A DNA stretch of 64,000 nt from a virus (IMGVR_UViG_3300027763_000047:6308-70307); one strand, 5' to 3'. Positions 20,000-50,935 are shown, numbered from the stretch's first letter. The notes: generated by a model from the letters alone, not told the origin. Numbers and translations are program-made.

Positions 20000-20014
20000 T
20001 TTTGGTGCTATAAT
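19986..20014 (+). promoter_or_regulatory. perfect consensus sigma70 promoter
   Basis: ttgacacagtgtgattttggtgctataat. Confidence 0.7.
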
Positions 20015-21331: not shown

Positions 21332-21360
21332 TTGACATGGTACCATTTTGGCAGTATAAT
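21332..21360 (+). promoter_or_regulatory. perfect consensus sigma70 promoter
   Basis: ttgacatggtaccattttggcagtataat; leader nearly identical to the 19986 cassette. Confidence 0.7.
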
Positions 21361-22442: not shown

Positions 22443-22471
22443 TTGACAATTAAATCACGATAGTCTATAAT
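22443..22471 (+). promoter_or_regulatory. perfect consensus sigma70 promoter
   Basis: ttgacaattaaatcacgatagtctataat. Confidence 0.7.
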
Positions 22472-27147: not shown

Positions 27148-27353
27148 TCATTGACTCAGGCTTCCAGTACGTCAAAACGATTCACAAACCCAAGGGGAGT
27201 CTGGATCGAATAATCGATTGGTGCAAACAGGAGACCCAGGGCGAGTGGCGATGGCAGTTAATTGCTGTTAGCAGCGAACATACCCCGGGCGAGTACATCT
27301 TTTATTTCGATTCCGAACGCGATTACCTTTCATTCCTAATGAAATGGTCTTGA
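27138..27353 (+). CDS. dispersed member of the LRWS paralog family
   Basis: I-D-W-C-K-Q-E core; C-term ERDYLSFLMKWS. Confidence 0.55.
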   Translation: MCLIIDSGFQYVKTIHKPKGSLDRIIDWCKQETQGEWRWQLIAVSSEHTPGEYIFYFDSERDYLSFLMKWS

Positions 27354-27378
27354 CAATTAATTCACCATAAACTATAAT
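27350..27378 (+). promoter_or_regulatory. perfect consensus sigma70 promoter
   Basis: ttgacaattaattcaccataaactataat. Confidence 0.7.
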
Positions 27379-29371: not shown

Positions 29372-29503
29372 GTACCGCTATAACTACCATTATATGCGTA
29401 GTTATAGCAGTTAAGTACAAGGTTATTCAAAAGATTTGTTAGTTAAATAATCTTGCTATATAATATGTTACTCAATGTAGTTCAATTTAAAAAAGGAAAA
29501 GTA

Positions 29504-30673
29504 ATGAAATTTACTCAAAAAATGCTGGCAGCAGCTTTACTGGCACTAGGTCTTGGATCTAGCGCAGCTCACGCCGCAGACTCGTCTGTGACACTATACG
29601 GTATCTTAGATGCCGGTCTCCAAGGCTCTTCACAAAGTTTGTCCAACGGTTACTCATCAAGTAATGTTGGATTGGCCTCTGGTGTGCAGTCAGGCAATCG
29701 CTTTGGTATCAAAGGTTCGGAAGATTTAGGTTCAGGTCTTCGTGCTACTTTTGCTCTTGAAGCAGGCTTCAACTTAGGTAGTGGTGTTAGTCAGCAAAAT
29801 GGCACCTTGTTTGGTCGTCAATCATGGGTTGGTGTTGAAAGCAGCTCGTTAGGTTACGCTCGTGTAGGTAAGCAATATAACTTTGCAACAGACTATGTTG
29901 GCGCAATTGATCCATTCCTCTTGGGATTTGGTCAGGCTAATATGGGTACCACATTCGGTGCTGCTAATACTACCCGTTATAACAACATGGTTAAGTATCA
30001 GACACCAACATGGAATGGCTTAACAGCTGGTGTTGGTTATTCGTTTGCTAACGGCTTGGCTAGTTTGTATGCTGATCCAGCTAACTACGGTGGATATGTT
30101 GCTGCTAACACATACAACTATGCCACAGCTAACAACGCTCGTACATTAACAGCTGGTATTAAGTATGCGTCTGGTCCCGTGACTGTTGTTGGTTCATATG
30201 ATGTTATGTATGGTCCTGAAAACATTGTTGGTTCAAATGCTGCTAATCCATCACAGTGGATTGTGGGCGGTGCGTATGACTTCTCAGTTGCTAAAATTGC
30301 TGCTGCGTACAGTCAGTCACGTAACGGTTGGATCAATGGACAAGCTAGTGTAGACCCAACATTCACAGCCAACACTTATAACAGTGGTGCCGGTGCCGTG
30401 TTGTATAGTCCTTCGTTTGGTGCTAACAGCTATCTAGTAGGTGCTACTGTTCCTGTAACAGGCGCACAGAAAGTATTTGCCAGCTATCAATATGCTACTC
30501 CGGTCGCATCAATGGCTGCTGCTGCTAATCTGAGCATTTATTCAGTTGGTTATCAATATGACTTGTCAAAGCGTACCAATGCGTATGCCTATGCTAGTCA
30601 GGCTCAAAACTATGCGTTCTTAGACGGTGCCAAGAGCACAGTTTATGGACTTGGTTTACGGCATCAGTTCTAG
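29504..30673 (+). CDS. Gram-negative outer-membrane porin (betaproteobacterial porin_4-like)
   Basis: signal peptide ending AHA-AD; VTLYGILDAG; C-terminal ...GLRHQF; start at ATG 29504 after AAGGAAAAG. Confidence 0.75.
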   Translation: MKFTQKMLAAALLALGLGSSAAHAADSSVTLYGILDAGLQGSSQSLSNGYSSSNVGLASGVQSGNRFGIKGSEDLGSGLRATFALEAGFNLGSGVSQQNGTLFGRQSWVGVESSSLGYARVGKQYNFATDYVGAIDPFLLGFGQANMGTTFGAANTTRYNNMVKYQTPTWNGLTAGVGYSFANGLASLYADPANYGGYVAANTYNYATANNARTLTAGIKYASGPVTVVGSYDVMYGPENIVGSNAANPSQWIVGGAYDFSVAKIAAAYSQSRNGWINGQASVDPTFTANTYNSGAGAVLYSPSFGANSYLVGATVPVTGAQKVFASYQYATPVASMAAAANLSIYSVGYQYDLSKRTNAYAYASQAQNYAFLDGAKSTVYGLGLRHQF

Positions 30674-30688
30674 AAGTAAAAGGATAAC

Positions 30689-31228
30689 ATGAACAAGTTT
30701 TTATCAATCGTTATCCTAGCACTGGCTTCCGCTTCAGCGGTTGCTGGTGGCTATGTAACAGCAACCGACGGCAGCATCGTTAAGACTGGTAGTGATTTGT
30801 GTTTACACACAGGTTATTACACAGCTACTGATGCAGTTAAAGGTTGTGACGCAGTTCCAGTTACCCCAGCTAAGCCAGCATCAATCACGCTTGACTCAGA
30901 TGTATTGTTTAAGTTTGATTCGGCAACGCTAACCGCAGACGGTGTGAAAGCACTGGACGTGGTTGCAGCCAAAGCCGGTGGCGTTGTAATCATCGTAGGA
31001 CACACTGATCGTATTGGATCTAGTCGATACAATCAATCTTTAAGTGTTGCTCGTGCTGACACCGTTGCAAAATATGTAGGTGCAAAGGCAAAAGCAGATT
31101 ACTCAGTAACTGGAGTTGGATCCACACAACCAAGTGGCAAAACAAAACAATGTATTGGCCCTATGAGCCCGCAACTTATTGCTTGTTTAGCACCTGATCG
31201 TCGTGTAGTTATTACTATCGTTAAGTAA
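30689..31228 (+). CDS. OmpA-family C-terminal domain protein (signal peptide)
   Basis: VIIVGHTDRIGSSRYNQSLSVARADTV OmpA-like motif. Confidence 0.75.
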   Translation: MNKFLSIVILALASASAVAGGYVTATDGSIVKTGSDLCLHTGYYTATDAVKGCDAVPVTPAKPASITLDSDVLFKFDSATLTADGVKALDVVAAKAGGVVIIVGHTDRIGSSRYNQSLSVARADTVAKYVGAKAKADYSVTGVGSTQPSGKTKQCIGPMSPQLIACLAPDRRVVITIVK

Positions 31229-31636: not shown

Positions 31637-32434
31637 ATGAAACAAATTTTTAAATTGGCAGTTGTAGCAGGTCTTATCGCAACCACAGTTGGTTGTCAGC
31701 GTATTGAAACCGGCGAAGTAGGTGTACGAGTTGGCTTTGATAAACAAGTAAAACCAGGCGAGTTGCAACCAGGTTCTTTTAATCAAACACTAATTGGTGA
31801 TGTACTTACATTCCCTGTTCGTGATGTATCAGTTAAGATTGATGACATGACTCCGCTTGCCAAAGACAACAGCACTATGAAAGACATGGATGTTACTGTT
31901 ATCTATAACATCAATCCAACGCAAGTTAGCGAATTGTATGTTAGCAAGAACCGTAGCTTTCACGTTAAGCACAATGGTGACACTTACTTGATGTACAACT
32001 ACATTTTCAATGCCGCACGAAATGCTGCTTACAAAGCTGCTCGTAAGTATGACGCATTGACTATGAACGACAGTCGTGCGTTAATGGAACAGGATATGAA
32101 AGACATCATTGCCAAGACCTTGGCAGATGAAAATCTTGCTGGTTCAATTACAGTAAGCCAAGTTCTTATTCGTGCGCTAACTCCAGCAGACTCAGTGGTT
32201 GCGTCAGCCAATGAATTGGTACGTTCTAAGAACGAGCTGTTGCAAAAGGAGGTTGAAGTCAAAACAGCCGAAGCAGAATCTCGTCGTATGGCAGCACTTA
32301 CCAATCAAAGCTCGGCCAGTATTGCTTACATGAATGCTCAGGCTGCGTTAAACATCTCCGAAGGTGTCAAGAACGGTAAGGTGCAGACCATTATTGTTCC
32401 CAGCAACATGACCGGCTTGATGATTGGCAAGTAA
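31637..32434 (+). CDS. SPFH/band-7 domain lipoprotein
   Basis: lipobox LIATTVGC; ETGEVGVRVGF...DVTVIYNINP SPFH-like core. Confidence 0.55.
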   Translation: MKQIFKLAVVAGLIATTVGCQRIETGEVGVRVGFDKQVKPGELQPGSFNQTLIGDVLTFPVRDVSVKIDDMTPLAKDNSTMKDMDVTVIYNINPTQVSELYVSKNRSFHVKHNGDTYLMYNYIFNAARNAAYKAARKYDALTMNDSRALMEQDMKDIIAKTLADENLAGSITVSQVLIRALTPADSVVASANELVRSKNELLQKEVEVKTAEAESRRMAALTNQSSASIAYMNAQAALNISEGVKNGKVQTIIVPSNMTGLMIGK

Positions 32435-34417: not shown

Positions 34418-36358
34418 ATGAAAATACACGAAATTACCTTGTTATTCGAGGGTTATCCCCAAGCTCAAGATGCTTTTATTCAGCAATCGGGCGGTGATAC
34501 TGCATCAGTACAAAAAACTATCGCCGACTTTCGTCAGTTGGTGAATAGAAATCAGATCAAAGACACAAACCAAAAGAATATCGATTGGTGGGCCAAACAG
34601 GGCTGGGATAAGTTCAATGCTTTTGTCAATCAGGCATCAGCAATACCCAGCAAGACGCAAATGACCAGAAAGAAAATACCTGGGCAAAGCATCAACTTGG
34701 TGGATGATGCTCAGTGGCTCATCGTTGTGCCACTGGACAAGGAAGCCAGCTGTTTTCATGGAAGAAACAGCAGTTGGTGTACTACTAAAGTTCATCAGGA
34801 ACATTTTGAAAATTACTTCTACAACAATGAAGTAACCTTGATATATTGCTTTAATAAAGCCACTGGTGGTATGTGGGCTATAGCGGCACATAAAAGAACA
34901 GATCGCATGGAAATGTTTACACAACAAGATGCATCAATATCGGCAGAACAATTTACACAACTGACTGGTCTAGATCCTCAACAGTTACGATCCATGGCTC
35001 TGGGTGACGTTCATCAACCTGCAGTACAGGCATCCAGAGATCAATGGAAGGAATCTGTAGCATTGACAAAACAATTGATGGCTACAATGCCACGCGGCAC
35101 CAGATCGGCAGAAATAGAAAAGCAATTGGAGTATAATAAAGTAGGGGGATTATGCTTTGATTATATCTACCGATTTCAGTCAATTGAATCCAAAGACTTT
35201 CCGTTGTCGATACAGATATCGGCAATTAACAAAAATGGTGCCGTATTGGACCGAATCAATAATCCTGTTCAAGCTGTGCAACTGGCAGCAGTCAAGAAGG
35301 AAAATCTTGGGTTGAAAACCATCATTGCTCATGGAGCCAAGCCCAATGAAGCCGTACAACTGGCAGCAGTCACACAACACGGTCCTGCTATAGGTTTCCT
35401 GAAAGCCGCCGGCATCACTCCCAGCGAGGCTGTTCAAATGGCAGCAGTAAATCAGAGCGGTACTGCTATACATTCCATCATATCGAATGGTATCGTGCCC
35501 AGTGATGAGGTGCAAATAGCAGCAGTAACTCAGAATCCAGAAGCAATAAAATTCATAATCACAGATTTGGGCACTGAGCCAAGTCATGCTGTGCAAATGG
35601 CAGCAGTCAAACGTTACGGCGGAACGTTTCGAATGTTGATGAATCATGGAATTGTTCCCAGCAAAGACGTTCAAGAAGAAGCAATAGCCAGGGACGGCCT
35701 TAGTATACAATATTTGAAAAATCCCAATGAGAGATTACAATTGGCCGCAGTTAGCAATGTTGGCAGGGCTATATTGTTTATTCTCCGGGCCGGCATCAGA
35801 CCAAGTCACGCGGTGCAATTGGCAGCAGTGACGCAGGATGGGCTGGCACTCGATTATATCTTACAGGATAAAATTAAACCAGAGTATGATGTGCTATTAG
35901 CAGCAGTGACCCAGGATGGCCGTGCCATTGAATATATCCAAAATCCCGACGAGCGATTACAGATAGCCGCAGCCAAGAGAAATAGTGGTGCATTAAAACT
36001 TTTAATGAAAGCTGGAATAACCCCCAGTTATGCCGTACAGATGGCGTCAGTTACTCATGATCCCTGGTCTATAAAATATTTGAAAAATCCCGATGAGAGA
36101 TTACAATTGGCCGCAGTCAACAATCATGGTGGTGCATTACATGAAATAATCAAATCTGGAATTCTTCCCAGCGAGGCGGTACAATTGGCCGCGGTCAAAT
36201 CAAGCCCCATAGTATTACGTATGATCCAAAATCCCAGCATGGCGGTTCGCGACGCTGCACACATAGCAGCACAAGAGAAAAAAGCTCAAGAGGATGCTGC
36301 TATAAACGCTGCCAGAGCTGCCAGAGCTGCTCAAGGTGCCCAAGCAGCACCGGCCTAA
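34418..36358 (+). CDS. repeat protein with about 14 tandem ~37-aa repeats (DUF4116-like)
   Basis: repeats P-S-x-A-V-Q-[LM]-A-A-V-x-Q-x-G-x-A-[IL]-x-[YF]-[IL]; TATAAATA 10 nt upstream. Confidence 0.55.
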   Translation: MKIHEITLLFEGYPQAQDAFIQQSGGDTASVQKTIADFRQLVNRNQIKDTNQKNIDWWAKQGWDKFNAFVNQASAIPSKTQMTRKKIPGQSINLVDDAQWLIVVPLDKEASCFHGRNSSWCTTKVHQEHFENYFYNNEVTLIYCFNKATGGMWAIAAHKRTDRMEMFTQQDASISAEQFTQLTGLDPQQLRSMALGDVHQPAVQASRDQWKESVALTKQLMATMPRGTRSAEIEKQLEYNKVGGLCFDYIYRFQSIESKDFPLSIQISAINKNGAVLDRINNPVQAVQLAAVKKENLGLKTIIAHGAKPNEAVQLAAVTQHGPAIGFLKAAGITPSEAVQMAAVNQSGTAIHSIISNGIVPSDEVQIAAVTQNPEAIKFIITDLGTEPSHAVQMAAVKRYGGTFRMLMNHGIVPSKDVQEEAIARDGLSIQYLKNPNERLQLAAVSNVGRAILFILRAGIRPSHAVQLAAVTQDGLALDYILQDKIKPEYDVLLAAVTQDGRAIEYIQNPDERLQIAAAKRNSGALKLLMKAGITPSYAVQMASVTHDPWSIKYLKNPDERLQLAAVNNHGGALHEIIKSGILPSEAVQLAAVKSSPIVLRMIQNPSMAVRDAAHIAAQEKKAQEDAAINAARAARAAQGAQAAPA

Positions 36359-36441
36359 AAGGCAGCATAATTTAAATGAGGACCTTGGCGCTCTATGTAT
36401 CAGTTTTGGCTAACTAGGTCAAGAAAAATAATAAATTATGG

Positions 36442-36470
36442 TTGACATTTAATCAAAGGTCAGCTATAAT
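36442..36470 (+). promoter_or_regulatory. perfect consensus sigma70 promoter
   Basis: ttgacatttaatcaaaggtcagctataat. Confidence 0.7.
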
Positions 36471-36542
36471 GTAGTTGTAGTATGTAGTTAAGTTTAACTT
36501 TTATTTTAATCAACTTTGAAAGGCATCTTAGAAAGGCATCTT

Positions 36543-36866
36543 ATGAAACAAGAAAATTTATTTAAAGTAGCAGGTACCTCCAACCATAATGGAGAAATTA
36601 AAGTACGTTTTGCCAATGACTTGGTATCGCGTATTAAGGCCCTGCATCGCGCAGGTCACACTGATGTTAACCTCGTTGAGCTACCCAAGCCAATGACCAA
36701 ACTGGAAGCAGTTCAGTATCTGCAGTCAGTTGGATACAATCAAGGTGACGTTGGTTATATCGTATCAGCTAAATTGGCTGAGAAAACCAAAATCGCCAAG
36801 AAAGGCGAAGTTAAGGTTAAGTCTGCAAAGGTTAGTAAACCAGCTAAAGTCGCTGAAACAGTTTAA
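36543..36866 (+). CDS. small protein with lysine-rich C-terminal tail (possible DNA-binding)
   Basis: KTKIAKKGEVKVKSAKVSKPAKV tail; alternative ATG 36516. Confidence 0.45.
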   Translation: MKQENLFKVAGTSNHNGEIKVRFANDLVSRIKALHRAGHTDVNLVELPKPMTKLEAVQYLQSVGYNQGDVGYIVSAKLAEKTKIAKKGEVKVKSAKVSKPAKVAETV

Positions 36867-36878
36867 TTTTTCAGCAAA

Positions 36879-36904
36879 AAGGCGGCTAACAAGCCGCTTT
36901 TCCA
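36879..36904 (+). terminator. rho-independent terminator
   Basis: ggcggct-aaca-agccgc followed by ttttcc. Confidence 0.55.
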
Positions 36905-36925
36905 CGAACTCGAATAATTAAATAT

Positions 36926-37168
36926 ATGAGTGAACAGGAAGTAGTGGAACCATTTCGGTTAGCCATCATGGAGATCATGATGATTTTACATAAACATGGT
37001 ATTAGGGAAGTACACATAGGTGCTATGATGCGCCTAGTCGGCGTGGAAGAAGAAGATGCAAAAATCTGTGATGATGAGCGTATTATGTTAACCGAAGACT
37101 TTACCGAATATGTAAATCAAGTGTTGGCGTTATCATCTGTCAGCAGTGAAAATCAAACTTTACATTAA
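36926..37168 (+). CDS. small hypothetical protein
   Basis: 80 aa. Confidence 0.45.
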   Translation: MSEQEVVEPFRLAIMEIMMILHKHGIREVHIGAMMRLVGVEEEDAKICDDERIMLTEDFTEYVNQVLALSSVSSENQTLH

Positions 37169-37410
37169 TGTCCGTCCCAGTATTTAAGAATATCGAATCA
37201 GTATATATTGTTATCTTACGGACGCAGGACGCAAAAAGTCTACTTCAAAAATGGCTATCATCAAATCGTTACGCATCGGCTCGTGTTGATGACAATCGAC
37301 TGTATATAAACGATCATAATACTTACAATTTGTTCCTGGTCACATGGTCACATGGTTGGGATAACATCTTAGTATGGGATTGTTATATGAAGCGACACAT
37401 TTACATTTAA
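37168..37410 (+). CDS. small hypothetical protein
   Basis: 80 aa. Confidence 0.45.
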   Translation: MSVPVFKNIESVYIVILRTQDAKSLLQKWLSSNRYASARVDDNRLYINDHNTYNLFLVTWSHGWDNILVWDCYMKRHIYI

Positions 37411-37471
37411 CCAAAAAATTTGTAGTATATGTCGTATAGTGTATAATTAACAATACTATAAAGGAAATACT

Positions 37472-37660
37472 ATGTCAACACATGAACAAATCGTAGCAGC
37501 TTACGAAAACTACTTGGCTGAAAATGCTAAGTTCAGCGACAAAGGTGTTAAAGCCGCCGCCGCCCGTGCCAGAAAATCTCTACAGGAAATCGCCAAGGCT
37601 GTCAAAGTACGCCGTGCTGAGATCACCACAGAAAAAGAAGCACTGACTCCAGCGAAGTAA
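37472..37660 (+). CDS. small basic protein
   Basis: KAAAARARKSLQEIAKAVKVRRAEI. Confidence 0.4.
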   Translation: MSTHEQIVAAYENYLAENAKFSDKGVKAAAARARKSLQEIAKAVKVRRAEITTEKEALTPAK

Positions 37661-37851
37661 TGACTACGCACACACGTATCGTTATGGAAAACCCAGAAAA
37701 TCCAGAGGAATTAATTCTGGACCTGGGTGAAGAAATTTGTGGTCCCCTCGGTTGGAAAGAGGGTGACACAATAGTATGGACAGATATGGGAAATGGATCA
37801 TGGCAGCTAACAAAGCAACAAACGACCCTAACAACACCACAGCAACAGTAG
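37660..37851 (+). CDS. small hypothetical protein
   Basis: 63 aa. Confidence 0.4.
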   Translation: MTTHTRIVMENPENPEELILDLGEEICGPLGWKEGDTIVWTDMGNGSWQLTKQQTTLTTPQQQ

Positions 37852-38264
37852 CCCCCTCACTGACCTCTGTAATTAACGGCGGGTATGTTACCACCAGTAC
37901 CACTGGTCCGGTGTACTACACTGGTGGTGGCATTGTCGGCGGCGGCGGCTATGCCGGTGGTGCTGGATTTGGCGGTGGTAATACTGCTATAGGCATTGGG
38001 TCATGGTCCAGTCAGCCAGCACCAGCCACAATCACTGCCGGCACACTAGAGCTATCGGGCGATAAAGCTGATATTAAAATCAATGGTGTCAGTCTAAATG
38101 ACACTTTAACAGCTATACAAAAAAAATTAGATGTATTAACCGTCAATCCTAAATTAGAAAATGAATGGGACAAGCTCAAGGAATTGGGTGAACAATATCG
38201 CAAGCTGGAAGCCGAACTTGCAGAAAAATCTCGTATGTGGGCAGCTTTAAAAAAGACTGAGTGA
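37776..38264 (+). CDS. glycine-rich protein with C-terminal coiled coil
   Basis: GGGIVGGGGYAGGAGFGGG; start uncertain (overlaps previous ORF). Confidence 0.4.
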   Translation: MDRYGKWIMAANKATNDPNNTTATVAPSLTSVINGGYVTTSTTGPVYYTGGGIVGGGGYAGGAGFGGGNTAIGIGSWSSQPAPATITAGTLELSGDKADIKINGVSLNDTLTAIQKKLDVLTVNPKLENEWDKLKELGEQYRKLEAELAEKSRMWAALKKTE

Positions 38265-38830
38265 TGAAAATTAAATATTTTTCATTACTGGTCTTGTTGG
38301 GATTGGGCGGGTGTTTAACTACACCCGTTCTAGACTCTACACTAACATCGGTTGACTATGAATTAATGGATGCATTGATCTATGAAAGAACACCAACTCC
38401 ATTGGTTAAAACTCCACTATTTTCTCCCAAGGACATTGAATGTCTGGCCCGGAATATATATTACGAATCAGGAGCAGAGCCACTTGAAGGCAAAGTTGCT
38501 GTGGCTGTGGTAACCATCAATCGCTCGAAAGATGAGAGATTTGGTTCAAAAACGCTATGCGGCATTATATACACAAGAACAAATATAGGCAAGGGTGTGA
38601 TAGTTTGCCAGTTTAGCTGGACCTGTGGTACTAAAATTCCAATTAAAAAAGATAGTGAGCATTGGCGGTTATCCAAGGAAGTTGCTGAGAACATAGCTCG
38701 TGGCGATTACAGTGAGTACTCGTACAAATATCGAAAAGCCCTATTCTTTCACGCTGTATCAGTCAAGCCATCATGGGCTTATGTCAAGCGTGTAGTAGCC
38801 CGTATCGGCGGCCATGTATTTTATGAATAG
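38261..38830 (+). CDS. SleB-like cell-wall hydrolase (Hydrolase_2), lipoprotein
   Basis: lipobox LLGLGGC; ECLARNIYYESGAEPLEGKVAVAVVTINR...QFSW. Confidence 0.65.
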   Translation: MMKIKYFSLLVLLGLGGCLTTPVLDSTLTSVDYELMDALIYERTPTPLVKTPLFSPKDIECLARNIYYESGAEPLEGKVAVAVVTINRSKDERFGSKTLCGIIYTRTNIGKGVIVCQFSWTCGTKIPIKKDSEHWRLSKEVAENIARGDYSEYSYKYRKALFFHAVSVKPSWAYVKRVVARIGGHVFYE

Positions 38831-38831
38831 C

Positions 38832-38860
38832 TTGACAATTAAATCCGCTGTTACTATAAT
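38832..38860 (+). promoter_or_regulatory. perfect consensus sigma70 promoter
   Basis: ttgacaattaaatccgctgttactataat; ATG 38867 only about 6 nt after the -10. Confidence 0.65.
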
Positions 38861-38866
38861 AGCTTT

Positions 38867-39259
38867 ATGACAATGCATCTACTCCCCCCGCTGTATTCGA
38901 CCACAGGCAAAAAGAAAGGTCGCTATAAATTCGCATCTGCTGAGCAAAAACAGCAAGCTGAAGCTAATAAGGAAGAGTGGCAGCGTAAACTAAATGAATT
39001 TAATCGACTATCACCCTCTGTAAGGACGTCAAAGAGCCCTATGCCCACACTAAGCAAATCGCTACCCCGTATTCCCACCAGCCGTCAAACAGCTCACATT
39101 GAGTCCCTAGTAACCACCTGGGGTCCTTGCCTTAAGGTAGAAGATATGCAGTACACTGGCAACAAAATTAAGGGCATTGGCACAATGCATAAATCAAATG
39201 CGGTGCCGGTATTCAGTGACGAAGAAGCTGTTGAAATTTCACAAATGCGGAGAGGCTAA
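38867..39259 (+). CDS. hypothetical basic protein
   Basis: 130 aa. Confidence 0.45.
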   Translation: MTMHLLPPLYSTTGKKKGRYKFASAEQKQQAEANKEEWQRKLNEFNRLSPSVRTSKSPMPTLSKSLPRIPTSRQTAHIESLVTTWGPCLKVEDMQYTGNKIKGIGTMHKSNAVPVFSDEEAVEISQMRRG

Positions 39260-39260
39260 G

Positions 39261-39710
39261 ATGAGCGTAACAGATAATACAACCGATTTATTTACAACTT
39301 TATTTGATTTTGATTCGACCAGTGAGCTTTTGAAGACTAAACCAACTGCACCTCGCCCAACATGTGTAAATCATGGATGTAGTAAGCCAGTTGCATCGGA
39401 TGGTAAGCGTTGGCGTATTCATTGCGGACATTGCCAAGGTGCAAGTTACGGAAGAAACCCTCACGCAGCCGGAGTTACCCCATTAAAAACAGGTATTTGT
39501 TCAAATATTGATGGACATTTAGGATTTCCCTGTGTGATAGACTGGAAAAAAGTTCCAGAATTTGCTAAAGGCATGACTGAAATTGACCATATTGACGGCA
39601 ATCATTTGAATAATTCTATTAGCAACCTTAAAGAACTATGTCCCATTTGTCATAAACTTAAAGGACAACGAGCCGGCGATTTTAAACGCGGTAGATACAC
39701 ACATAAATAA
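39261..39710 (+). CDS. HNH endonuclease
   Basis: Cys-rich; IDHIDGNHLNN...LCPICH motif. Confidence 0.7.
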   Translation: MSVTDNTTDLFTTLFDFDSTSELLKTKPTAPRPTCVNHGCSKPVASDGKRWRIHCGHCQGASYGRNPHAAGVTPLKTGICSNIDGHLGFPCVIDWKKVPEFAKGMTEIDHIDGNHLNNSISNLKELCPICHKLKGQRAGDFKRGRYTHK

Positions 39711-39739
39711 CTGCTCATAACAGGAGATAATAAAACAAA

Positions 39740-39961
39740 TTGAGTAAATCAGATGATGTAATTAAAATGGAGGGTGTAATCACCGAAGTATTACGAAACA
39801 CGAATTATCGTGTTAAAATTGAAAACATTGAAAATCACATTCTCGCTACACTAAGCGGGAGAATACGCCAAAATAATATCAAAGTACTTACAGGCGACAG
39901 AGTACAGTTAGATATATCACCCTACGACCTATCTCGTGGTAGAATTACACGTAGGCTATGA
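39740..39961 (+). CDS. infA: translation initiation factor IF-1 homolog
   Basis: EGVITEVLRNTNYRVKIEN...LSGRIRQNNIKVLTGDRVQLDISPYDLSRGRI aligns with bacterial IF-1; TTG start. Confidence 0.85.
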   Translation: MSKSDDVIKMEGVITEVLRNTNYRVKIENIENHILATLSGRIRQNNIKVLTGDRVQLDISPYDLSRGRITRRL

Positions 39962-40521
39962 TTTTAATAAATACCTACATGAGAGATTTATTAAACTTAG
40001 TGGAAGCAGCAACCGTTTCAGCTAAACTGGAAACTACCCCACTACCCTACGCACATAAAGATCTGGCTCCCATAATGAGCGCAGACACAATAGAATACCA
40101 CTACGAGCACCTGGCTAAAGGCTACGCTAAAAAGTACAATGCCGGCGAAGGTGATGCCGATTTCAACCGTGCTGGCAGCTTCTTACACAACAAATTCTTT
40201 CCCCAATTGCAAGCACCAAAAGGTGCCAACCGTCCCAAGGGTGCGGTGCTAGAACTCATTGAAGCTAACTTCAAAACTTACGAAGATTTCAAGGTAGCGT
40301 TCAAAGAAGCTGCCATGAAGATTCAGGGATCGGGTTGGGTTTATCTCAGCACAGGTGGAACTATTAAAACCATACGAAATCATCAGGTTCGTACCGATAT
40401 TTGTGTACTGGTTGACTGGTGGGAACATTCATGGTCGACGGATTACAAGTGGGATAAAGAAAAGTATCTAGATAATATCTGGAAAATTATCAACTGGAAC
40501 GTATGTTCGGAGAGAATATGA
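39958..40521 (+). CDS. divergent Fe/Mn superoxide dismutase-like protein
   Basis: [37 protein letters not shown] resemble SOD N- and C-domain signatures. Confidence 0.65.
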
Positions 40522-40844
40522 TCACACTAACTGAAAACGCCGCGATTAAAATTAAAGATTTATTAGCAGAAGAAAACAATCCCAAGCTAAAACTTCGTGT
40601 ATTCGTTCAGGGCGGCGGATGCAGTGGAATGCAGACAGGCTTTACCATGGATGAAGAACAAGCTGACGATGACTGGGAGGTCGAAGTCAATGGCGTTCAT
40701 TTGTTAGTAGATAGTATGAGTAGTAATTATTTAAAAGGTTCAACCGTGGATTATCGCGATGATATCAATGGATCTGCCTTTGTTATCACTGGCATGGAAG
40801 CCACAACGACATGTGGCTGTGGTAGTAGTTTTTCACCATATTAA
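40518..40844 (+). CDS. Fe-S cluster insertion protein, ErpA/IscA/HesB family
   Basis: [14 protein letters not shown]...CGCGSSF conserved cysteines. Confidence 0.8.
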
Positions 40845-40901
40845 GCCCCGAATGACATAGACATTACTTTAGCTAAATAATAAGAGCTAAAGAGGACGGA
40901 T

Positions 40902-42323
40902 ATGTCGCAACAAATTATTAATGTAGGTACGGCGCCCAACGATGGTTTGGGAACTCCAATACGTACTGCTTTTCAGTACACAAATAATAACTTCACGCAA
41001 CTGTTTTCGTTGCCGAATCCTACACCCCCAACTACCCTAGTGGGCAAAGCGGGCGATGTCCCGGGTATGTATGCATACAGCGCGGCATATTTTTACTACT
41101 GTTTTGGAACTTATGATGGTTCCACTGTTATTTGGGCACAGATTGCCCAGGGTAATACCTCAATCTCAAATATCGTTAATGGCACTAGTAATGTAAGAAT
41201 CGGTAGTGCCAATGCCAATGTAACCGTGGGAGTAAACGGTACAGCAAATATTGCAGTTTTCAGTAATACTGGAGTATCAGTAACTGGTAATATTAGAACC
41301 TCTGGACAAATAACAGCCACTGGTAATGTATATGGTAATGCCATTGTCGGCACTTACTTGTACGGAGATGGCAGCAATATTAGTAACATATCAGGTGGCG
41401 GGAATTACAGTAATACCAATGCAGCAGCATATCTACAGGTACTAACTTCAAATGTATCAACAACTGGCAACATAACCGGAAGTTATATTTTAGGCAATGG
41501 TAGAAATTTAACTGGATTACCGTTAACCTATGGCAATGCTAACGTTGCTAACTTTTTACCAGTATTTACTGGTAACATATTATCAAGTAATATGACCGCT
41601 ACTGGAAACGTGCATGCCGGAAATATTAAAACGGTGGGAATAGTTTCAGCAACAGGAAACATCACTACTGACGGATATTTTATTGGCAATTTCGTTGGGA
41701 ACATATCAGGTAACTTAGTAGTGCCTGGATCGAATACTCAAGTACTTTATAATGATAATGGAAATGCTGGAGCAAGCGCCGGGTTAATATTTAACTCTGC
41801 ATCAAACATTTTATCAGTAACGGGAAATGTGTATGGCAATTATTTTCTTGGTAACGGTAGTCAATTAACAGGGTTACCAGTTACGTATGGCAATGCCAAT
41901 GTGGCTGCTTATCTACCAACTTATACCGGCAACATAACAGCAGGTAATATCAGTACCACTGGAAATATAACAGCTAGCTATATTTTAGGTAATGGTAGTC
42001 AATTAACTGGCATCGCCGCCACCGGCATAAATGCAAACGCACTAACTGGATCTACCTTATCAAGCAATGTTACTACCAGCAGCTTGACTTCTGTTGGTAC
42101 TTTGGCAAATTTAAGTGTAACCGGCAATGTAGTGGCATCTGGGGTAGTGACTTCTACCGGCACATTTAGATTGCCTAGTTATACTACCGCACAAATTGCC
42201 AACATATCAGCGGTAGAAGGAGATATGGTTTATAATTCAACTGTACAACAAATACAAGCATATCAAGCAAATGCCACAGGTAACGTAACATGGGTAAGTT
42301 TAAGTGTGTCTACTTACCAGTAA
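40902..42323 (+). CDS. tail fiber protein
   Basis: N-term MSQQIINVGTAPNDGLGTPIRTAFQYTNNNFTQLF; ILGNGSQLTG modules shared with the giant fiber. Confidence 0.8.
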   Translation: MSQQIINVGTAPNDGLGTPIRTAFQYTNNNFTQLFSLPNPTPPTTLVGKAGDVPGMYAYSAAYFYYCFGTYDGSTVIWAQIAQGNTSISNIVNGTSNVRIGSANANVTVGVNGTANIAVFSNTGVSVTGNIRTSGQITATGNVYGNAIVGTYLYGDGSNISNISGGGNYSNTNAAAYLQVLTSNVSTTGNITGSYILGNGRNLTGLPLTYGNANVANFLPVFTGNILSSNMTATGNVHAGNIKTVGIVSATGNITTDGYFIGNFVGNISGNLVVPGSNTQVLYNDNGNAGASAGLIFNSASNILSVTGNVYGNYFLGNGSQLTGLPVTYGNANVAAYLPTYTGNITAGNISTTGNITASYILGNGSQLTGIAATGINANALTGSTLSSNVTTSSLTSVGTLANLSVTGNVVASGVVTSTGTFRLPSYTTAQIANISAVEGDMVYNSTVQQIQAYQANATGNVTWVSLSVSTYQ

Positions 42324-42334
42324 TGGAGTAACTT

Positions 42335-45076
42335 ATGACAGCACAGCCTATTTGGATTACTCCCCCTGGTAGTTTAGGTACTGTACCAGAAGGTGCTTAC
42401 TACGAAGTACCACTGCGTGTTACCGATACGTTTACCACTGACCTCATAGGTATCGTGGGTAGTGGATCTTCAGTCACAGCTACATTTTATACTCAGACAG
42501 TATCCATGTTCCAACCTGGTGATACTGTTGTGGTCACTGGAGTTAACCCGTCATCTTATAACGGTAGCTTTATAGTAACCAAATGTACCACTACACAAAT
42601 TACATATACGAGTTCGGCTACCGGTACTTGGATCGGTGGCGGTACTATCACTTCCGTGCCATCGACTGTATATTTTGAATCTATTGCTGGCGCATTACCC
42701 GATGGTATTGAATGCACGACATCTGGCGTACTACAGGGTACTCCTACCAATGTGGTTACAGTGGCAGATGAAGCATTGGTAGTGGGAGTCAATGTTACCA
42801 GTAAATTTGCTATTAGGGCCTATACAACCAAAACAGTTGGTGGCATTACTGTCATTAATAGATTAGCCGATAGAACATTTACTATAACGGTCGCTGGGCA
42901 AAATCTACCCAGTTGGATCACACCTGCGGGCGAACTTAGTCAGCTATGGGTAGGTGAATTGTTGTCCCCAGGTATACAATTAGATTATACTACTGATAAT
43001 ACAACTGGAATTCCGCCGGCTATCAGCTTGTATTCGGGGAGTTTGCCCCCGGGAATTACAGTTAGTGATACTGGCTTAATTTCTGGATTTGTTGGCTTAA
43101 ATCCAACAACATCTGCTCAACCTGGATTCAGTGTTAACGGTCAAGGATTTAGTACATACCCATTTGATTTTGATATAGAAGCACAAAATTCCACATATAC
43201 ATTTACACTACAGGTTACTGATGGTCGAATATCTGCATTACGAGAATTTAGCCTATTCGTATGGAGTACTGAGGCATTTACTGCTGACACTACCTTGATC
43301 ACAGCTGATAACACCTATCTAACAGCCAGCATATCCAGTGTTAATACCCCAGTGATAACAAACCCTCAGGGATCTATTGGCACCACATACAGCAATACAT
43401 ATTTTGCTTACCAATTTGTGGGGAAGAATATTACCGGAGACACTATAGGGTATACTGGTGCTTCGTTACCCACAGGGTTAACACTTAATTCAACAACTGG
43501 ATGGTTAACCGGATACTTACCTACAATTGGGCTATTCGAATCTACTTTTGATTTTACAGTAACCGCATACCTAACCAACTCGCCATCAGTGACTAGTGAT
43601 CCATATGATTTTAGCCTGACAGTTGAAGGACCTATATTCTCCAATGTGACCTGGCTCACACCCTCCAACTTGGGCACCATTGCCAATGGGTCCACCAGTA
43701 TATTTTATGTTGAGGCGACCAATACTACTAACACAAATTTACAGTATCAATTAGTATCAGGATCAGATTCAAAATTACCGCAGGGATTAACTCTATTGCC
43801 ATCAGGTAATATTGCTGGGCGTGTAAGTTTTAATGCATACCCCACCCCCGCTCAGTATGGTAGCACAGTATACACCTTTACAGTAAACGCTTACAGTACT
43901 AATGGATTTATCAGTGTTAATAAAACGTTCTCCATCACGGTGGAGCGTGTCTACGAGACACCTTATCAAAACTTGTATATCCAATGTATGCCGCCGGTTG
44001 ATGATCGAGAATTGATTGCTAGTTTACTGCAAAATTCTACTATCTTTACTCCGTCACTACTATATCGTCCCGATGATACTAACTTTGGATTGAGTCGCAA
44101 TGTCGTGTATCATCATGCATATGGATTAAATGCTGCCAGCGTGGATACCTATGTATCCTCACTTCAACTTAACCACTACTGGAAGAATTTACTCTTGGGA
44201 GAAATTAAAACAGCACAAGCTGTCGACCCTTTAACAGGTAATGTAGTGTACGAAGTAGTATATTCGGAAATCATAGATAGCTTAGTCAACAATGACAATC
44301 TAAGTGTTGGCAAAGAAGTGGTGCTGGCCTATCCAATAGAAGAGCAAACAATTGATGTAGTGTACCCTAATTCGCTTGATAACATGAGAGATCAGGTAAT
44401 TGACGTAGTGGGACAGGAGAGTGACCTGTTACCGTTATGGATGCAGAGTTCCCAAGCAGATGGTAAAGTTTTAGGGTTTATCCCAGCATGGGTAATTGCA
44501 TATACAATACCAGGGGCGTCGGGGCAGATACAATACAATATACAGACACAGTTTGGAATCCAATTAAATCTAGTGGATTTTGTAGCCGATCGGTATGAGC
44601 TTGATAACGCTCTTACAGTTAACTGGGATGGCAACACACAAAGTTGGGTACCAAGCCCACCGGAGACGACATCATTTGACATCAATTACCACTATAATGT
44701 CACTATAGGCACAGCAGGCAATGTATACCTAGCGGGTGATCAAATTAAGATCTTAGGCTCGTCACTGGGCGGGGTAACTCCTGCTAATGATTTACTCATA
44801 ACGGTCAATACTGTAAATACCAATGGTGCCATCCTTGATGCATTCTATTATGGTACTGCCAATAGCGCAGCGGCTGGTAATTCCTATGATAACTTAGCCG
44901 GGGTAAATGTAGTTGGTCCAGGCACTGGGGCCACTTGGGATATTACTGTAGTACCAGGAGTCGAAACTGTATTTGACGGGGGAAGCGTTACCTTTATTGC
45001 TCCAGCAGATACAGATACCAGCTCCACTGCTAACGACAAATACTTGTTGTATCCCAAATACAATATATTAGTTTAA
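42335..45076 (+). CDS. tail fiber/structural protein (913 aa)
   Basis: Ser/Thr/Gly/Asn-rich beta-rich composition; directly downstream of fiber gene. Confidence 0.55.
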   Translation: MTAQPIWITPPGSLGTVPEGAYYEVPLRVTDTFTTDLIGIVGSGSSVTATFYTQTVSMFQPGDTVVVTGVNPSSYNGSFIVTKCTTTQITYTSSATGTWIGGGTITSVPSTVYFESIAGALPDGIECTTSGVLQGTPTNVVTVADEALVVGVNVTSKFAIRAYTTKTVGGITVINRLADRTFTITVAGQNLPSWITPAGELSQLWVGELLSPGIQLDYTTDNTTGIPPAISLYSGSLPPGITVSDTGLISGFVGLNPTTSAQPGFSVNGQGFSTYPFDFDIEAQNSTYTFTLQVTDGRISALREFSLFVWSTEAFTADTTLITADNTYLTASISSVNTPVITNPQGSIGTTYSNTYFAYQFVGKNITGDTIGYTGASLPTGLTLNSTTGWLTGYLPTIGLFESTFDFTVTAYLTNSPSVTSDPYDFSLTVEGPIFSNVTWLTPSNLGTIANGSTSIFYVEATNTTNTNLQYQLVSGSDSKLPQGLTLLPSGNIAGRVSFNAYPTPAQYGSTVYTFTVNAYSTNGFISVNKTFSITVERVYETPYQNLYIQCMPPVDDRELIASLLQNSTIFTPSLLYRPDDTNFGLSRNVVYHHAYGLNAASVDTYVSSLQLNHYWKNLLLGEIKTAQAVDPLTGNVVYEVVYSEIIDSLVNNDNLSVGKEVVLAYPIEEQTIDVVYPNSLDNMRDQVIDVVGQESDLLPLWMQSSQADGKVLGFIPAWVIAYTIPGASGQIQYNIQTQFGIQLNLVDFVADRYELDNALTVNWDGNTQSWVPSPPETTSFDINYHYNVTIGTAGNVYLAGDQIKILGSSLGGVTPANDLLITVNTVNTNGAILDAFYYGTANSAAAGNSYDNLAGVNVVGPGTGATWDITVVPGVETVFDGGSVTFIAPADTDTSSTANDKYLLYPKYNILV

Positions 45077-46294: not shown

Positions 46295-46896
46295 ACGTTA
46301 GAATAGTTTGCCCCTTGAGTTTTATCGCCGGTATACACTATAACGGTGAATTACAAATGAATAGTTATACTGTTAAGTTATTCATTTTAACCAATAGTTT
46401 AGATGGAACTATCAATAACATTGCACTTGATAGAATAAAATACTTTGTCTATCGAGAAATGGATAGTACTATTTTTATCAACAGCAAAGAAGAAGATCAG
46501 TGTCGATTATATCTTGACGCTAACATCAAAATTACCACCATACCCGAAGAACCTATTGATCAACTGGTGGGTATAATGCTGTTTAATAAACTGACTGCCA
46601 TTGTTGAAGATAGACTTATTATTGATGAAATAGAAATAAGTTCTGGTCTTGGCGACGGTATAATTTACATGCATAGTCAAGAAGAAAATGTAGATGATTT
46701 ACCCATACCCGATTGGTGGGCAACTTCTGACCTAGCACATTGTGATGCTAAATTCCTTGACGCTGATGAATATATTACTCTAGCCAATGTAACTATATGG
46801 CGAGATTTAGAGTTGCAATGGCCCGACGAAGCTGAACCCGAAGTTGGAAATACTGTTGTATTTGCGGATTTTAAATTACTAGATGAAAAAGAATAA
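46291..46896 (+). CDS. hypothetical protein
   Basis: 201 aa. Confidence 0.5.
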   Translation: MNVRIVCPLSFIAGIHYNGELQMNSYTVKLFILTNSLDGTINNIALDRIKYFVYREMDSTIFINSKEEDQCRLYLDANIKITTIPEEPIDQLVGIMLFNKLTAIVEDRLIIDEIEISSGLGDGIIYMHSQEENVDDLPIPDWWATSDLAHCDAKFLDADEYITLANVTIWRDLELQWPDEAEPEVGNTVVFADFKLLDEKE

Positions 46897-47407
46897 TTAC
46901 GGGGAAATGATTTTTAATGAGAATGATGTCCTTGATCAATTGATGAAGGGGCGTGCCGTTGATTCATTGAAAGGTATGCTGGTGGATGAAACTGTTGATA
47001 TCGAACAGATAGTATATTTTGTGGATCACTTTCCAACTACGTTTATGCCATACAAATTTACTCCTGATCAAGTTGTCTCGGTGCCCGCATGGGATGCCGC
47101 TCAACAGAAGACCTGGCATATGCCCCAGCAGTATCAGGATATGGACATAGCAGAATACGTGTTAAGTTTATGTGTTGATGATGCCGAACTACAAAGGTGT
47201 GGGGAAGAGCTATTGCTGTACCAACAGCACAACCTATTTAATCTACTGAAATATTTAAAATATTTGGTGGATGTAATGAAAGAGAACCACGTAATTTGGG
47301 GTGTCGGGCGAGGCAGTAGTGTGGCCAGCTTTGTACTGTATAAATTAGGCGTACACCGTATAAACAGTATGTACTATAATTTATCCATCACCGAATTTTT
47401 ACGTTAA
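46883..47407 (+). CDS. hypothetical protein
   Basis: 174 aa. Confidence 0.5.
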   Translation: MKKNNYGEMIFNENDVLDQLMKGRAVDSLKGMLVDETVDIEQIVYFVDHFPTTFMPYKFTPDQVVSVPAWDAAQQKTWHMPQQYQDMDIAEYVLSLCVDDAELQRCGEELLLYQQHNLFNLLKYLKYLVDVMKENHVIWGVGRGSSVASFVLYKLGVHRINSMYYNLSITEFLR

Positions 47408-49594: not shown

Positions 49595-50162
49595 TTGTGA
49601 CGGAGTATGTTTAGATTGGGAATGGGCATTTAATATCTGGATGTATCAACACGGATTTGAAGAAATTCCTGGTGCCAAACTAAACTATGACATGTCTGTA
49701 CGTTATGGCATTCCGCGTGAACAAGTAGTTAAACTGATCCGCATTTTTAATGAAAGTGCGTCTATCGGATTCTTGCCGCCCATGCGTGATGCCATGTATT
49801 ATATCAAAAGATTGCATGAAGAATTTGGTTATAAGTTTCATGCCATTACTTCATTGAGTTTAGATCCTAATGCTCAGAAGCTAAGGGAAATGAATCTTCA
49901 TAAGTTATTTGGTCCTACCGCATTTGAGCGTATTGTATGTTTAGATACTGGTGCTGATAAAGATGAGGCGTTGGCAGAATATAAAGACTCCGGATATTAT
50001 TGGATTGAAGATAAGTGGGCCAATGCTGAAGCCGGCTATAAAGCCGGCCTCAGGTGTATCGTGTTAGAACATGGTCATAATATGTACGAGTATCATCCAG
50101 AAATTACTATCTTAAAAAACTGGAAAACAATATTTGACCATATTACCGATCAGTCGGAATAA
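49557..50162 (+). CDS. HAD-superfamily phosphatase (5'-deoxynucleotidase-like)
   Basis: IILTDCDGVCLDW (DxDG motif). Confidence 0.5.
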   Translation: MKYLPKQKIILTDCDGVCLDWEWAFNIWMYQHGFEEIPGAKLNYDMSVRYGIPREQVVKLIRIFNESASIGFLPPMRDAMYYIKRLHEEFGYKFHAITSLSLDPNAQKLREMNLHKLFGPTAFERIVCLDTGADKDEALAEYKDSGYYWIEDKWANAEAGYKAGLRCIVLEHGHNMYEYHPEITILKNWKTIFDHITDQSE

Positions 50163-50935
50163 AGGCGAAGCACGGAATCAATGATTCTGTGCCGCTGTAT
50201 GTCGCGACTATCTAGCTCGCACACAGCTATTCCATTTACACCTCCTTTCAACAATCTTTGGCATAAATCTGCGAGGCCGTTGTTACCTTTAGTGCGGTCA
50301 GCTTGTTCAATATCTCCCGTAATGACGATTTTACTGCCTTCGCCGATACGTGTCATTAGCATCTTACATTGTGCCGGAGTAGCATTCTGCATCTCATCAG
50401 CTATAATGTATGCGTTTTTAAAGGTTCTACCCCTCATAAACGCAAGTGGTGCTATCTCTATTTTTTGATCCTCTAACATACCAGCAATATCCTGCTGACG
50501 ATAATATTCACGAAGAATATCAGTTAAGGGCCTTACCCATGGATCCATCTTTTGGTTTAAATCTCCTGGTAAAAATCCATGTTTTTCATCTTCTACGCCA
50601 ACTGCTGGTCGTGTTAGGATTATACGATCAACTTCTCCTTCGCGGAATGCCTTAACAGCGGCTAGCATAGCAAGGTAAGTTTTACCTGTACCAGCTGGAC
50701 CTGCTGTGATTACAATATGTTGACTTTCATCTTGCAATGCCAATACCAATCGCTCTTGATTTCGTGTACGGGGCACGATATCAATGGGACGTTGTTTTAA
50801 GGGTTTTGCTTGATTGAAGTTTATTGTATTTTCTTGAAATACCGTATCACGGCGTTGTGATTTTACTGCTTTGTGTCTACTCATTAAAGCCTCATGTAGA
50901 AGTAAGTTACTGCTATCAGCACCTTGCTGACCCAA
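50150..50935 (-). CDS. phoH: PhoH-like ATPase
   Basis: ITAGPAGTGKTYLAM and YIIADEMQN. Confidence 0.85.
   Translation of the reverse strand: MGQQGADSSNLLLHEALMSRHKAVKSQRRDTVFQENTINFNQAKPLKQRPIDIVPRTRNQERLVLALQDESQHIVITAGPAGTGKTYLAMLAAVKAFREGEVDRIILTRPAVGVEDEKHGFLPGDLNQKMDPWVRPLTDILREYYRQQDIAGMLEDQKIEIAPLAFMRGRTFKNAYIIADEMQNATPAQCKMLMTRIGEGSKIVITGDIEQADRTKGNNGLADLCQRLLKGGVNGIAVCELDSRDIQRHRIIDSVLRLYSD

Follow-up and report, generated by a model that had tools for sequence, protein, structure and literature searches.

The IF-1 gene and its product

The viral DNA stretch IMGVR_UViG_3300027763_000047:6308-70307 (64,000 nucleotides (nt); hereafter the window, meaning the whole stretch that was analyzed) carries at positions 39740..39961 of the plus strand an infA-like gene, which codes for a 73-amino-acid homolog of translation initiation factor IF-1, starts with TTG, stops with TGA, and matches the families TIGR00008, PF01176, and phrog_30201. 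It is accompanied by genes for a 130-amino-acid protein (up130), a superoxide dismutase (SOD)-like protein, and an ErpA-type protein. A sequence-only reading of this DNA had described the product as a full-length homolog of bacterial IF-1 with the characteristic C-terminal motif of that factor, a proposal that depended on the significance of the alignment, and profile searches, residue comparison, and structure prediction bear it out.

In the Pfam profile search, PF01176 (eIF-1a/IF-1) was matched with an E value of 1.3e-18 and 66.8 bits (gathering score 30.2), and residues 8-72 of the window protein were aligned to the whole profile (positions 1-64 of 64). The score of the protein on TIGR00008, the infA equivalog of NCBIfam, was 93.6 bits (cut-off 61.15), with residues 5-72 on profile positions 2-68 of 69; both family cut-offs are thus passed over the full length of the protein. 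When all PDB sequences were searched with phmmer, the top matches were exclusively bacterial IF-1s (E=7e-19 to 2e-11), and identity to solved bacterial IF-1s in the phmmer and structure matches was about 46-51% (phmmer E=7e-19 to 1e-15). The protein is also matched by phrog_30201 (E=1.6e-20), which is labeled 'unknown function' in PHROGs. It is a small basic OB-fold protein with an isoelectric point (pI) of 9.98, and cold-shock-domain families are absent from its Pfam matches. The C-terminal motif GDRVQLDISPYDLSRGRI was found in the translation.

An AlphaFold2 model built from 40 homologs has a mean predicted local distance difference test score (pLDDT) of 90 and shows the order b1-b2-b3-short helix-b4-b5, with strands at residues 8-17, 22-27, and 34-38, a helix at 40-44, and strands at 54-60 and 63-72. 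In a Foldseek search against PDB, the top 14 matches were all IF-1, with template modeling (TM) scores of up to 0.87/0.91 and root-mean-square deviations (rmsd) of 1.2-1.6 A. The best matches include E. coli IF1 in the 30S complex (9fco_I; TM 0.87/0.91, rmsd 1.2 A) and, from T. thermophilus, the crystal structure of 30S with IF1 (1hr0_W; TM in the range of 0.87-0.91). Together with the PF01176, TIGR00008, and phmmer scores, the predicted fold places the IF-1 likeness far above chance, and sequence models, key residues, and predicted fold confirm that the product of 39740..39961 is a true full-length member of the IF-1 family.

Published structures and binding studies name the IF-1 residues that contact the 30S subunit: K39 and M42 lie at the 530 loop, R41 and R46 contact the flipped A1492 and A1493, H35, Y60, R64, and R66 are on the S12 side, the b1-b2 loop sits in helix 44's minor groove, and the C-terminal Arg (Arg69 in E. 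coli) is essential for 30S binding (PMC10913371, PMC4611024). In the alignment, the 530-loop contacts correspond to R41 and Q44 of the window protein, the A1492/A1493 contacts to R43 and K48, the S12-side contacts to T37, Y62, R66, and R68, and the essential C-terminal Arg to R72. The basic contact residues (R41, R43, K48, R66, R68, and R72) and the tyrosine corresponding to Y60 (Y62) are therefore present, and the fact that basic contacts are either kept or conservatively replaced argues for binding of the window IF-1 to the 30S A site.

Start codon and translation signals

An in-frame TAA (39731-39733) lies two codons upstream of the TTG, making the TTG the earliest possible start, and the next candidate is an ATG at codon 10. 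Residues 2-9 (SKSDDVIK) match the conserved N-terminus of bacterial IF-1, and codons 2-9 show many synonymous and few non-synonymous differences among relatives; between the window and related locus L081, the proportion of synonymous differences (pS) is 0.9 and that of non-synonymous differences (pN) is 0. The TTG is kept in related loci L081-L086 and L100, and ATG is used in L088. The upstream stop codon, the conserved codons 2-9, and the retention of TTG in these relatives uphold the TTG start given in the sequence-only reading.

A Shine-Dalgarno (SD)-like GGAG motif is located at 39723..39726 on the plus strand, 13 nt upstream of the TTG, and both motif and spacing are conserved in L081-L086 and L100. 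At the other end of the gene, the TGA stop overlaps the ATG of the next (SOD-like) gene as ATGA. Over the whole window, an SD-like 4-mer precedes 33% of naively called starts compared with a background of 8.6%. However, start calls based on the longest open reading frame (ORF) were unreliable, as two of the 'TTG starts' (19986 and 21332) are in fact the TTGACA of promoters, and we therefore drew no conclusion on SD-poor translation in the window.

A conserved module around infA

The first gene of the module codes for up130 (38867..39259, plus strand; phrog_27048, E=2.5e-27). No Pfam match was found for up130 in the Pfam search. It has more than 7,900 metagenomic homologs, and an alignment of 42 sequences contains 35 invariant columns (e.g., YTG..IKGIGTMHKSNAVPVF). 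Phages PhiW-14 (Delftia) and ACP17 (Acidovorax) have homologs of its C-terminal half. The AlphaFold2 model of up130 is poor (pLDDT 62, predicted TM score 0.27) and uninformative on its fold.

Between up130 and infA lies a gene for an HNH homing-type endonuclease (39261..39710, plus strand), which is matched by HNH and HNH_3 in Pfam and by several HNH endonuclease families of PHROG and whose ATG at 39261 is preceded by GGAGAGG. In L084-L088 and L155, this gene is missing from the up130/IF-1 junction and about 25-50 nt separate the end of up130 from IF-1, indicating that the HNH gene is an insertion. Other junctions of the module are occupied in other relatives: we observed a NUMOD3-containing ORF in L153 (10786-11547), an HNH_3 endonuclease in L154 (892-1350), and an unannotated 334-amino-acid ORF in L155 (10220-11224). 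The presence of extra ORFs at differing junctions in different relatives suggests that the IF-1/SOD/ErpA module is a hotspot for homing-endonuclease insertion.

Downstream of infA, and overlapping its stop codon, is a gene for an Fe/Mn SOD-like protein (39958..40521, plus strand; Pfam Sod_Fe_C E=3.8e-20 and Sod_Fe_N E=1.5e-6). The protein matches solved SODs at E=3e-23. It has diverged strongly, scoring 81 bits where the NCBIfam cut-off is 348, and its N-terminal helical hairpin is about 20 residues shorter than that of canonical SODs. The four metal-ligand positions are apparently present (H48, H77, D153, and H157), and the protein is more conserved among relatives than IF-1. It is followed, with an overlap of 19 nt, by a gene for an ErpA/IscA-type Fe-S cluster insertion protein (40503..40844, plus strand), which scores 152.9 bits on the NCBIfam equivalog NF010147 (cut-off 117) and matches Pfam Fe-S_biosyn at E=1.7e-17.

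By examining 70 IF-1 loci of IMG/VR viral contigs, we found up130 upstream of IF-1 in 39, the SOD-like gene downstream of it in 48, and a syntenic ErpA gene in 45. At least one of these three genes is located within 5 kb of IF-1 in 56 of the 70 loci, and all three in 34. None of the 78 bacterial infA loci examined has a SOD-like, ErpA, or up130 gene within the same distance. Synteny of the module persists where IF-1 identity to the window drops to 45-55%, and the module was also found on related contigs of 168 kb and 344 kb (from JGI 3300045700 and 3300019776).

Promoters and leaders

A perfect sigma-70 consensus promoter, TTGACA-17-TATAAT, matching all 12 consensus positions, is present at 38832..38860 on the plus strand and is the likely promoter of the infA operon. 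The window contains nine perfect TTGACA-N16-18-TATAAT sites, compared with 0.07 expected by chance: eight on the plus strand (7239-7267, 7656-7684, 19986-20014, 21332-21360, 22443-22471, 27350-27378, 36442-36470, and 38832-38860) and one on the minus strand (13223-13252). Several of them have the extended form TTGACAATTAA, and downstream of five of the eight plus-strand sites comes a leader of 28-31 nt that contains an SD-like, purine-rich stretch and leads to an ATG. In many relatives, a promoter of the TTGAC(A/C/T)...TATAAT type also precedes the homolog of the 130-amino-acid gene, and this conservation suggests that the operon would be transcribed by host RNA polymerase.

The -10 box of the operon promoter ends only 6 nt before the ATG of up130 (38867, MTMH...; window 38832-38881), a leaderless-like arrangement. 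The equivalent promoter is followed by a leader of approximately 31 nt in L084, L087, L088, and L155, with an SD-like motif in some of them, and the leaderless-like arrangement thus looks like a local peculiarity of the window.

Phage nature of the window

The window has a GC content of 41% and about 105 ORFs, which are mostly small and unannotatable and lie in blocks nearly all on one strand. Scans of the whole 64 kb for tRNA/tmRNA genes and for Rfam families gave no match, and a nucleotide search of INPHARED with window positions 36000-43900 gave none either. Recognizable products include a T4-type clamp loader, a DNA polymerase III alpha fragment, PhoH, a DNA methyltransferase, a 'virion structural protein' of PHROG, and, among cell-wall enzymes, a cell-wall hydrolase and a chitinase/lysozyme-like protein. 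The clamp loader shares 54% identity with those of Pseudomonas jumbo phage PA5oct and its relatives and 42-44% with those of Phosso, Atu_ph07, and SCTP-2; the SOD-like protein is 37% identical to its PA5oct homolog, and a 913-amino-acid protein weakly matches Atu_ph07 and Phosso. Related contigs with the same gene order are classed as viral in IMG/VR and reach 158, 168, 344, and 364 kb.

The assignment to a phage draws on these relatives and on the PHROG matches; a search of the annotated products gave no capsid, portal, or terminase among the genes of the 64 kb. That the IF-1 gene is phage-encoded, as the sequence-only reading had it, agrees with its synteny with IMG/VR viral contigs, with the jumbo-phage relatives, with the many PHROG matches, and with the lack of any tRNA, rRNA, or Rfam match in the window. 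We conclude that the window belongs to a large, probably jumbo-class environmental phage, a distant relative of PA5oct, of Phosso (Sinorhizobium), and of Atu_ph07 (Agrobacterium). A porin of the Porin_4 family, the ErpA equivalog, and the up130 homologs in Delftia and Acidovorax phages are weak hints of a Gram-negative host.

Several other genes of the window were observed. The gene for the porin, a Gram-negative type, is full-length (29453-30673; Porin_4, E=2e-41) and is followed by genes for an OmpA-family protein (30689-31228) and an SPFH/Band-7 protein (31637-32434). A 62-amino-acid Hc1 (chlamydial histone H1-like) protein is encoded at 37472-37660 (E=1.2e-11) and occupies the same position in L153 and L155. 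A dnaJ gene (54841-55638) adjoins a gene for a ClpA/B-type double-AAA ATPase (55702-57981), and a PhoH-like ATPase is encoded on the minus strand (50150-50935); with SOD, ErpA, and IF-1, these make up a group of host-like genes for proteostasis and stress. For the minus-strand ORF at 10463-17437 (2,324 amino acids), we obtained neither a Pfam family nor, by tblastn of 50,697 phage records, a match. A 174-amino-acid ORF (46883-47407) is similar to the NTPase domain of DNA polymerase III alpha over its beginning alone (24-94 of the 260 profile positions); this ORF may represent a split or fragmented polymerase gene, and it also occurs, equally short, in L153 and L155.

Evolution of the phage IF-1

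More than 1,000 homologs of the window IF-1 were detected in a search of 5.8 billion proteins, and those checked, at 69-99% identity, lie on phage-like contigs; a look-up of the exact window protein sequence gave no record. Cellular relatives were sought by a pattern-seeded scan of one genome per species in 185,579 species. Among the candidates selected by the pattern, the best cellular match is 59% identical, and the matches are scattered over Gemmatimonadota, Melainabacteria, Clostridia, Chloroflexota, Bacteroidota, and other phyla, with no donor host evident. The GC content of infA (36.5%) is inside the range of the phage genes (40.8 +/- 3.9%). A recent horizontal transfer from a host was rejected, considering the best cellular identity of 59% among these candidates and the unremarkable GC content.

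Pairs within the close clade of the window sequence show saturated synonymous divergence (pS 0.5-0.87) and a pN of 0.03-0.26, and dN/dS was 0.02-0.13 where calculable. The infA-like gene is under strong purifying selection, and these ratios imply that it is functional rather than a decaying capture. Its selective maintenance is also seen in the synteny of the module, which extends down to about 45% IF-1 identity, and in the finding of no cellular copy above 59%.

In a neighbor-joining (NJ) tree of 72 columns, nearly all viral IF-1s are placed together, apart from 71 bacterial ones. Bootstrap values were 60-74% for the close clade of the window and 0.5-8% for the deep phage clades; because of this weak deep support, we do not claim monophyly of phage IF-1s and used synteny and profile scores instead. 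Two hidden Markov models (HMMs) were compared, one built from distant module-linked phage IF-1s alone and the other from the 71 closest bacterial IF-1s. The window IF-1 scored 108.9 bits on the phage-only HMM and 100.8 bits on the bacterial HMM; for the window IF-1 and all its close relatives (nine sequences of the close clade), the phage HMM was 7-16 bits above the bacterial HMM. Twenty-six of the 28 distant module-linked phage sequences likewise scored higher on a jackknifed phage HMM than on the bacterial HMM. The tree topology and the HMM scores suggest a single origin; together with synteny, they favor, but do not prove, an old acquisition of IF-1 that would have been followed by vertical descent in the phage group.

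Possible function

Based on family membership, fold, basic contact residues, purifying selection, and phage-specific synteny, we consider it likely that the gene encodes a functional IF-1 ortholog of a jumbo-class phage, i.e., an A-site initiation factor that supplements or replaces the IF-1 of the host. Host RNA polymerase would read the operon up130-IF-1-SOD-like-ErpA from the perfect sigma-70 consensus promoter, and the phage IF-1, as cellular IF-1 does, most probably binds the host 30S subunit at its A site, with helix 44, the 530 loop, and protein S12 around it. It would cooperate there with host IF2 and IF3 in the formation of initiation complexes, and in an infection that is long and demands much protein it would add to the IF-1 of the host or take its place. 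Considering that DnaJ, the ClpA/B-type ATPase, PhoH, SOD, and ErpA are also encoded in the window, IF-1 is one of a set of host-like maintenance genes; the comparable set in PA5oct consists of bS21, ClpX, ClpS, and FtsH.

Several observations weigh against this interpretation. When 71 bacterial IF-1s were compared with 37 phage-module sequences, the 'NGH'-turn His (numbered His30 in C. difficile) was found in all 71 bacterial proteins; it is Asn32 in the window and is retained in just 8 of the 37 phage-module sequences. The residue before the C-terminal Arg is Tyr, Phe, or Trp in 71 of 71 bacterial proteins, whereas it is Arg71 in the window and Arg in 25 of the 37 phage-module sequences. The Tyr/Phe at position 44 is replaced by Asn in the window IF-1, whose b2-b3 loop also has a one-residue insertion; 21 of the 37 phage-module sequences have a one-residue insertion in the NGH-turn loop. 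In the subclade of the window, the 'LPNAMF' loop has become 'LRNTNY'. In the b1-b2 loop, which is the one inserted into helix 44, the window protein has 'LRN' in place of 'LPN'. In an NMR titration of C. difficile IF1, the NGH His and the aromatic position were both perturbed by the 30S subunit (PMC10913371), which suggests that the ribosomal behavior of the window IF-1 may differ from that of host IF-1. Moreover, we found no functional study of any phage IF-1 in the literature, and the 64 kb of the window yielded no capsid, portal, or terminase gene. The replaced His and aromatic residues are conserved cellular features and not formal criteria of the family, and they lower confidence in identical behavior rather than in homology.

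These replacements raise the question of whether the protein is a specialized IF-1, that is, an A-site binder with altered kinetics or partner interactions (e.g., ejected more slowly when the 50S subunit joins, or cooperating in another way with IF2 or IF3) that shifts initiation to phage transcripts with coupled or overlapping cistrons, SD-poor or non-AUG starts, or no leader. We regard this as unlikely, although several findings are in its favor: positions invariant in bacteria are replaced throughout the clade (His30 by N, K, T, etc., aromatic 69 by R, and Y/F44 by N, in addition to the loop insertion), the derived states are held under strong purifying selection, 26 of 28 distant and all nine close-clade sequences prefer the phage HMM, and the operon of the gene itself has ATGA and 19-nt overlaps and a first cistron 6 nt past the -10 box. 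In addition, His29 of E. coli IF1 is reported to be dispensable for 30S binding but involved in 50S-induced ejection (Gualerzi et al. 1989, Protein Eng 3:133). On the other hand, the evidence for an altered activity is indirect, and the substitutions may reflect relaxed constraint or co-adaptation to an unsampled host. The sequence-only reading had suggested that a phage IF-1 biases initiation toward phage mRNAs, including leaderless ones. According to a review, IF1 strongly stimulates 70S-scanning initiation and, in vitro, leaderless initiation, which speaks for a specialized factor, but it stimulates SD-led initiation as well (PMC9031893), so that no bias follows from known biology. The bias is therefore unsupported, the more so as five of the eight plus-strand perfect promoters lead to 28-31 nt SD-like leaders, and the leaderless-like start of up130 is peculiar to the window, its relatives having leaders of about 31 nt. 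A broader version, which we likewise regard as unlikely, is that module-linked phage IF-1s form an old, vertically inherited, phage-specific subfamily whose changes (loss of the NGH His, Arg for the aromatic residue, N for Y/F44, and the longer b2-b3 loop) alter exit from the ribosome or interplay with it, and whose early expression from a host-type promoter re-tunes initiation to phage transcripts, such as those with coupled or overlapping cistrons and weak or non-AUG starts, instead of only adding to the IF-1 supply.

The remaining explanations depart further from a productive initiation factor. A small basic OB-fold protein of pI 9.98 from the superfamily of cold-shock proteins might act mainly off the ribosome as a binder of single-stranded RNA that melts phage transcripts or aids antitermination; E. 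coli IF1 reportedly has RNA chaperone and antitermination activity, infA overexpression reportedly suppresses csp defects in B. subtilis, and the related contigs come from environmental metagenomes. Such a role is quite improbable as the main one, since the score is above an IF-1-specific equivalog cut-off, the Pfam search gave no cold-shock-domain match, the ribosome-contact Arg and Lys residues are kept (including the C-terminal Arg essential for 30S binding), and chaperone activity would add to A-site binding and not substitute for it. An inhibitory decoy, which would occupy the A site unproductively or titrate IF2 and IF3 and so shut off host translation, could be seen in the loss of the His, one reportedly implicated in IF1 ejection. 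High IF1 concentrations may also inhibit protein synthesis (PMC10913371). However, a general A-site blocker would halt phage translation too, the operon groups the gene with the maintenance genes SOD and ErpA and not with recognizable host-takeover genes, and the ribosome-binding surface and the fold are conserved as in productive IF-1s, which make a decoy very improbable. Finally, the lack of an identified capsid, portal, or terminase gene and the cellular-looking genes (porin, OmpA, DnaJ, ClpA/B, ErpA, and SOD) might point to a bacterial chromosome, a megaplasmid, or a mis-binned cellular contig, in which case the gene would be the cell's own infA. We give this hardly any credence, because the window has no tRNA, rRNA, or Rfam match, its approximately 105 ORFs are mostly small and unannotatable, PHROG matches are many (including the virion structural protein and the T4-type clamp loader), the best cultured matches are jumbo phages, gene order is shared with IMG/VR viral contigs, the window carries free-standing homing endonucleases, and its IF-1 neighborhood recurs at 0 of the 78 bacterial infA loci.

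Whether the translation genes of large phages sustain or redirect host protein synthesis has rarely been tested. The window IF-1 provides a clean test case, being small and easily expressed, with more than 1,000 metagenomic variants, a conserved operon, and a clear set of substitutions, specific to its lineage, at sites where the compared cellular IF-1s do not vary. If the phage factor acts like host IF-1, it would document 'supply-side' support of infection; if it acts differently, it would be a natural tool for studying IF-1 release and the choice of initiation mode. The residue differences are the sole feature that could make the gene more than a spare copy of IF-1.

Comparison with known systems

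Compared with bacterial IF-1 (1AH9, 1HR0 chain W, and 9FCO chain I), the window protein has the same length and the same single S1-like OB domain; at 46-51% identity it passes the equivalog cut-off, its fold agrees at a TM of about 0.9, and the basic contacts and the C-terminal Arg are kept. It differs in being phage-borne, outside the chromosomal context of ribosomal protein genes and infA, in its TTG start, in the additional residue of the b2-b3 loop, in the changes of His to Asn, aromatic to Arg, Y/F44 to Asn, and LPN to LRN, and in being at most 59% identical to any cellular IF-1 found.

Initiation factors have been reported in other large phages. Al-Shayeb et al. 2020 include IF1 and IF3 in their list of huge-phage translation genes (PMC7162821), and a 'translation initiation factor 1A' is a conserved core gene of Jug phages (PMC12880540). 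Using tblastn, we identified IF-1 homologs, aligned along most of the protein at 41-54% identity, in Lak phages, Bacteroides DAC phages, two 'uncultured phage' records (484 and 595 kb), Phosso, and Acinetobacter phage MD-2021a, the copies of the last two being annotated as IF-1/infA in GenBank. Like the window copy, these huge- and jumbo-phage IF1s occur in large genomes, in the company of further genes for translation or proteostasis; unlike them, the window copy belongs to a separate and very populous metagenomic clade (matches at 69-99% identity). Phosso IF-1 (L151 4992-5210) shares the TTG start and the loss of the NGH-turn His (its sequence there is 'NGAK'), but an aromatic residue still precedes its C-terminal Arg, and it is not flanked by SOD or ErpA, the module being absent. 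Among cultured phages, PA5oct (Arenbergviridae, Wroclawvirus) and its relatives are closest in the clamp loader (54%) and the SOD-like protein (37%). The SOD-like protein of PA5oct is flagged as detected by electrospray ionization tandem mass spectrometry (ESI-MS/MS), and PA5oct also has host-like translation and proteostasis genes for bS21, ClpX, ClpS, FtsH, and a heat-shock protein. However, tblastn gave no IF-1 match in PA5oct and its relatives, and no ErpA or up130 gene was found beside the SOD-like gene of PA5oct.

The ribosomal proteins encoded by phages (bS21, bS1, and others) are a further parallel, as they are small host-derived parts of the initiation machinery, carried by large phages, that are presumed to favor phage translation and for which a redirection of host ribosomes has been proposed (PMC7162821). 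IF-1 differs from them in being a transient factor, and the window IF-1 has neither an N-terminal extension nor an obvious neofunctionalizing domain. Given that IF1 in huge phages was published in 2020, the sequence finding alone is unsurprising; what the present analysis adds is the conserved up130-infA-sod-erpA module, the evidence that the gene has long resided in phages under purifying selection, and the lineage-specific replacements at positions that do not vary in the compared bacteria.

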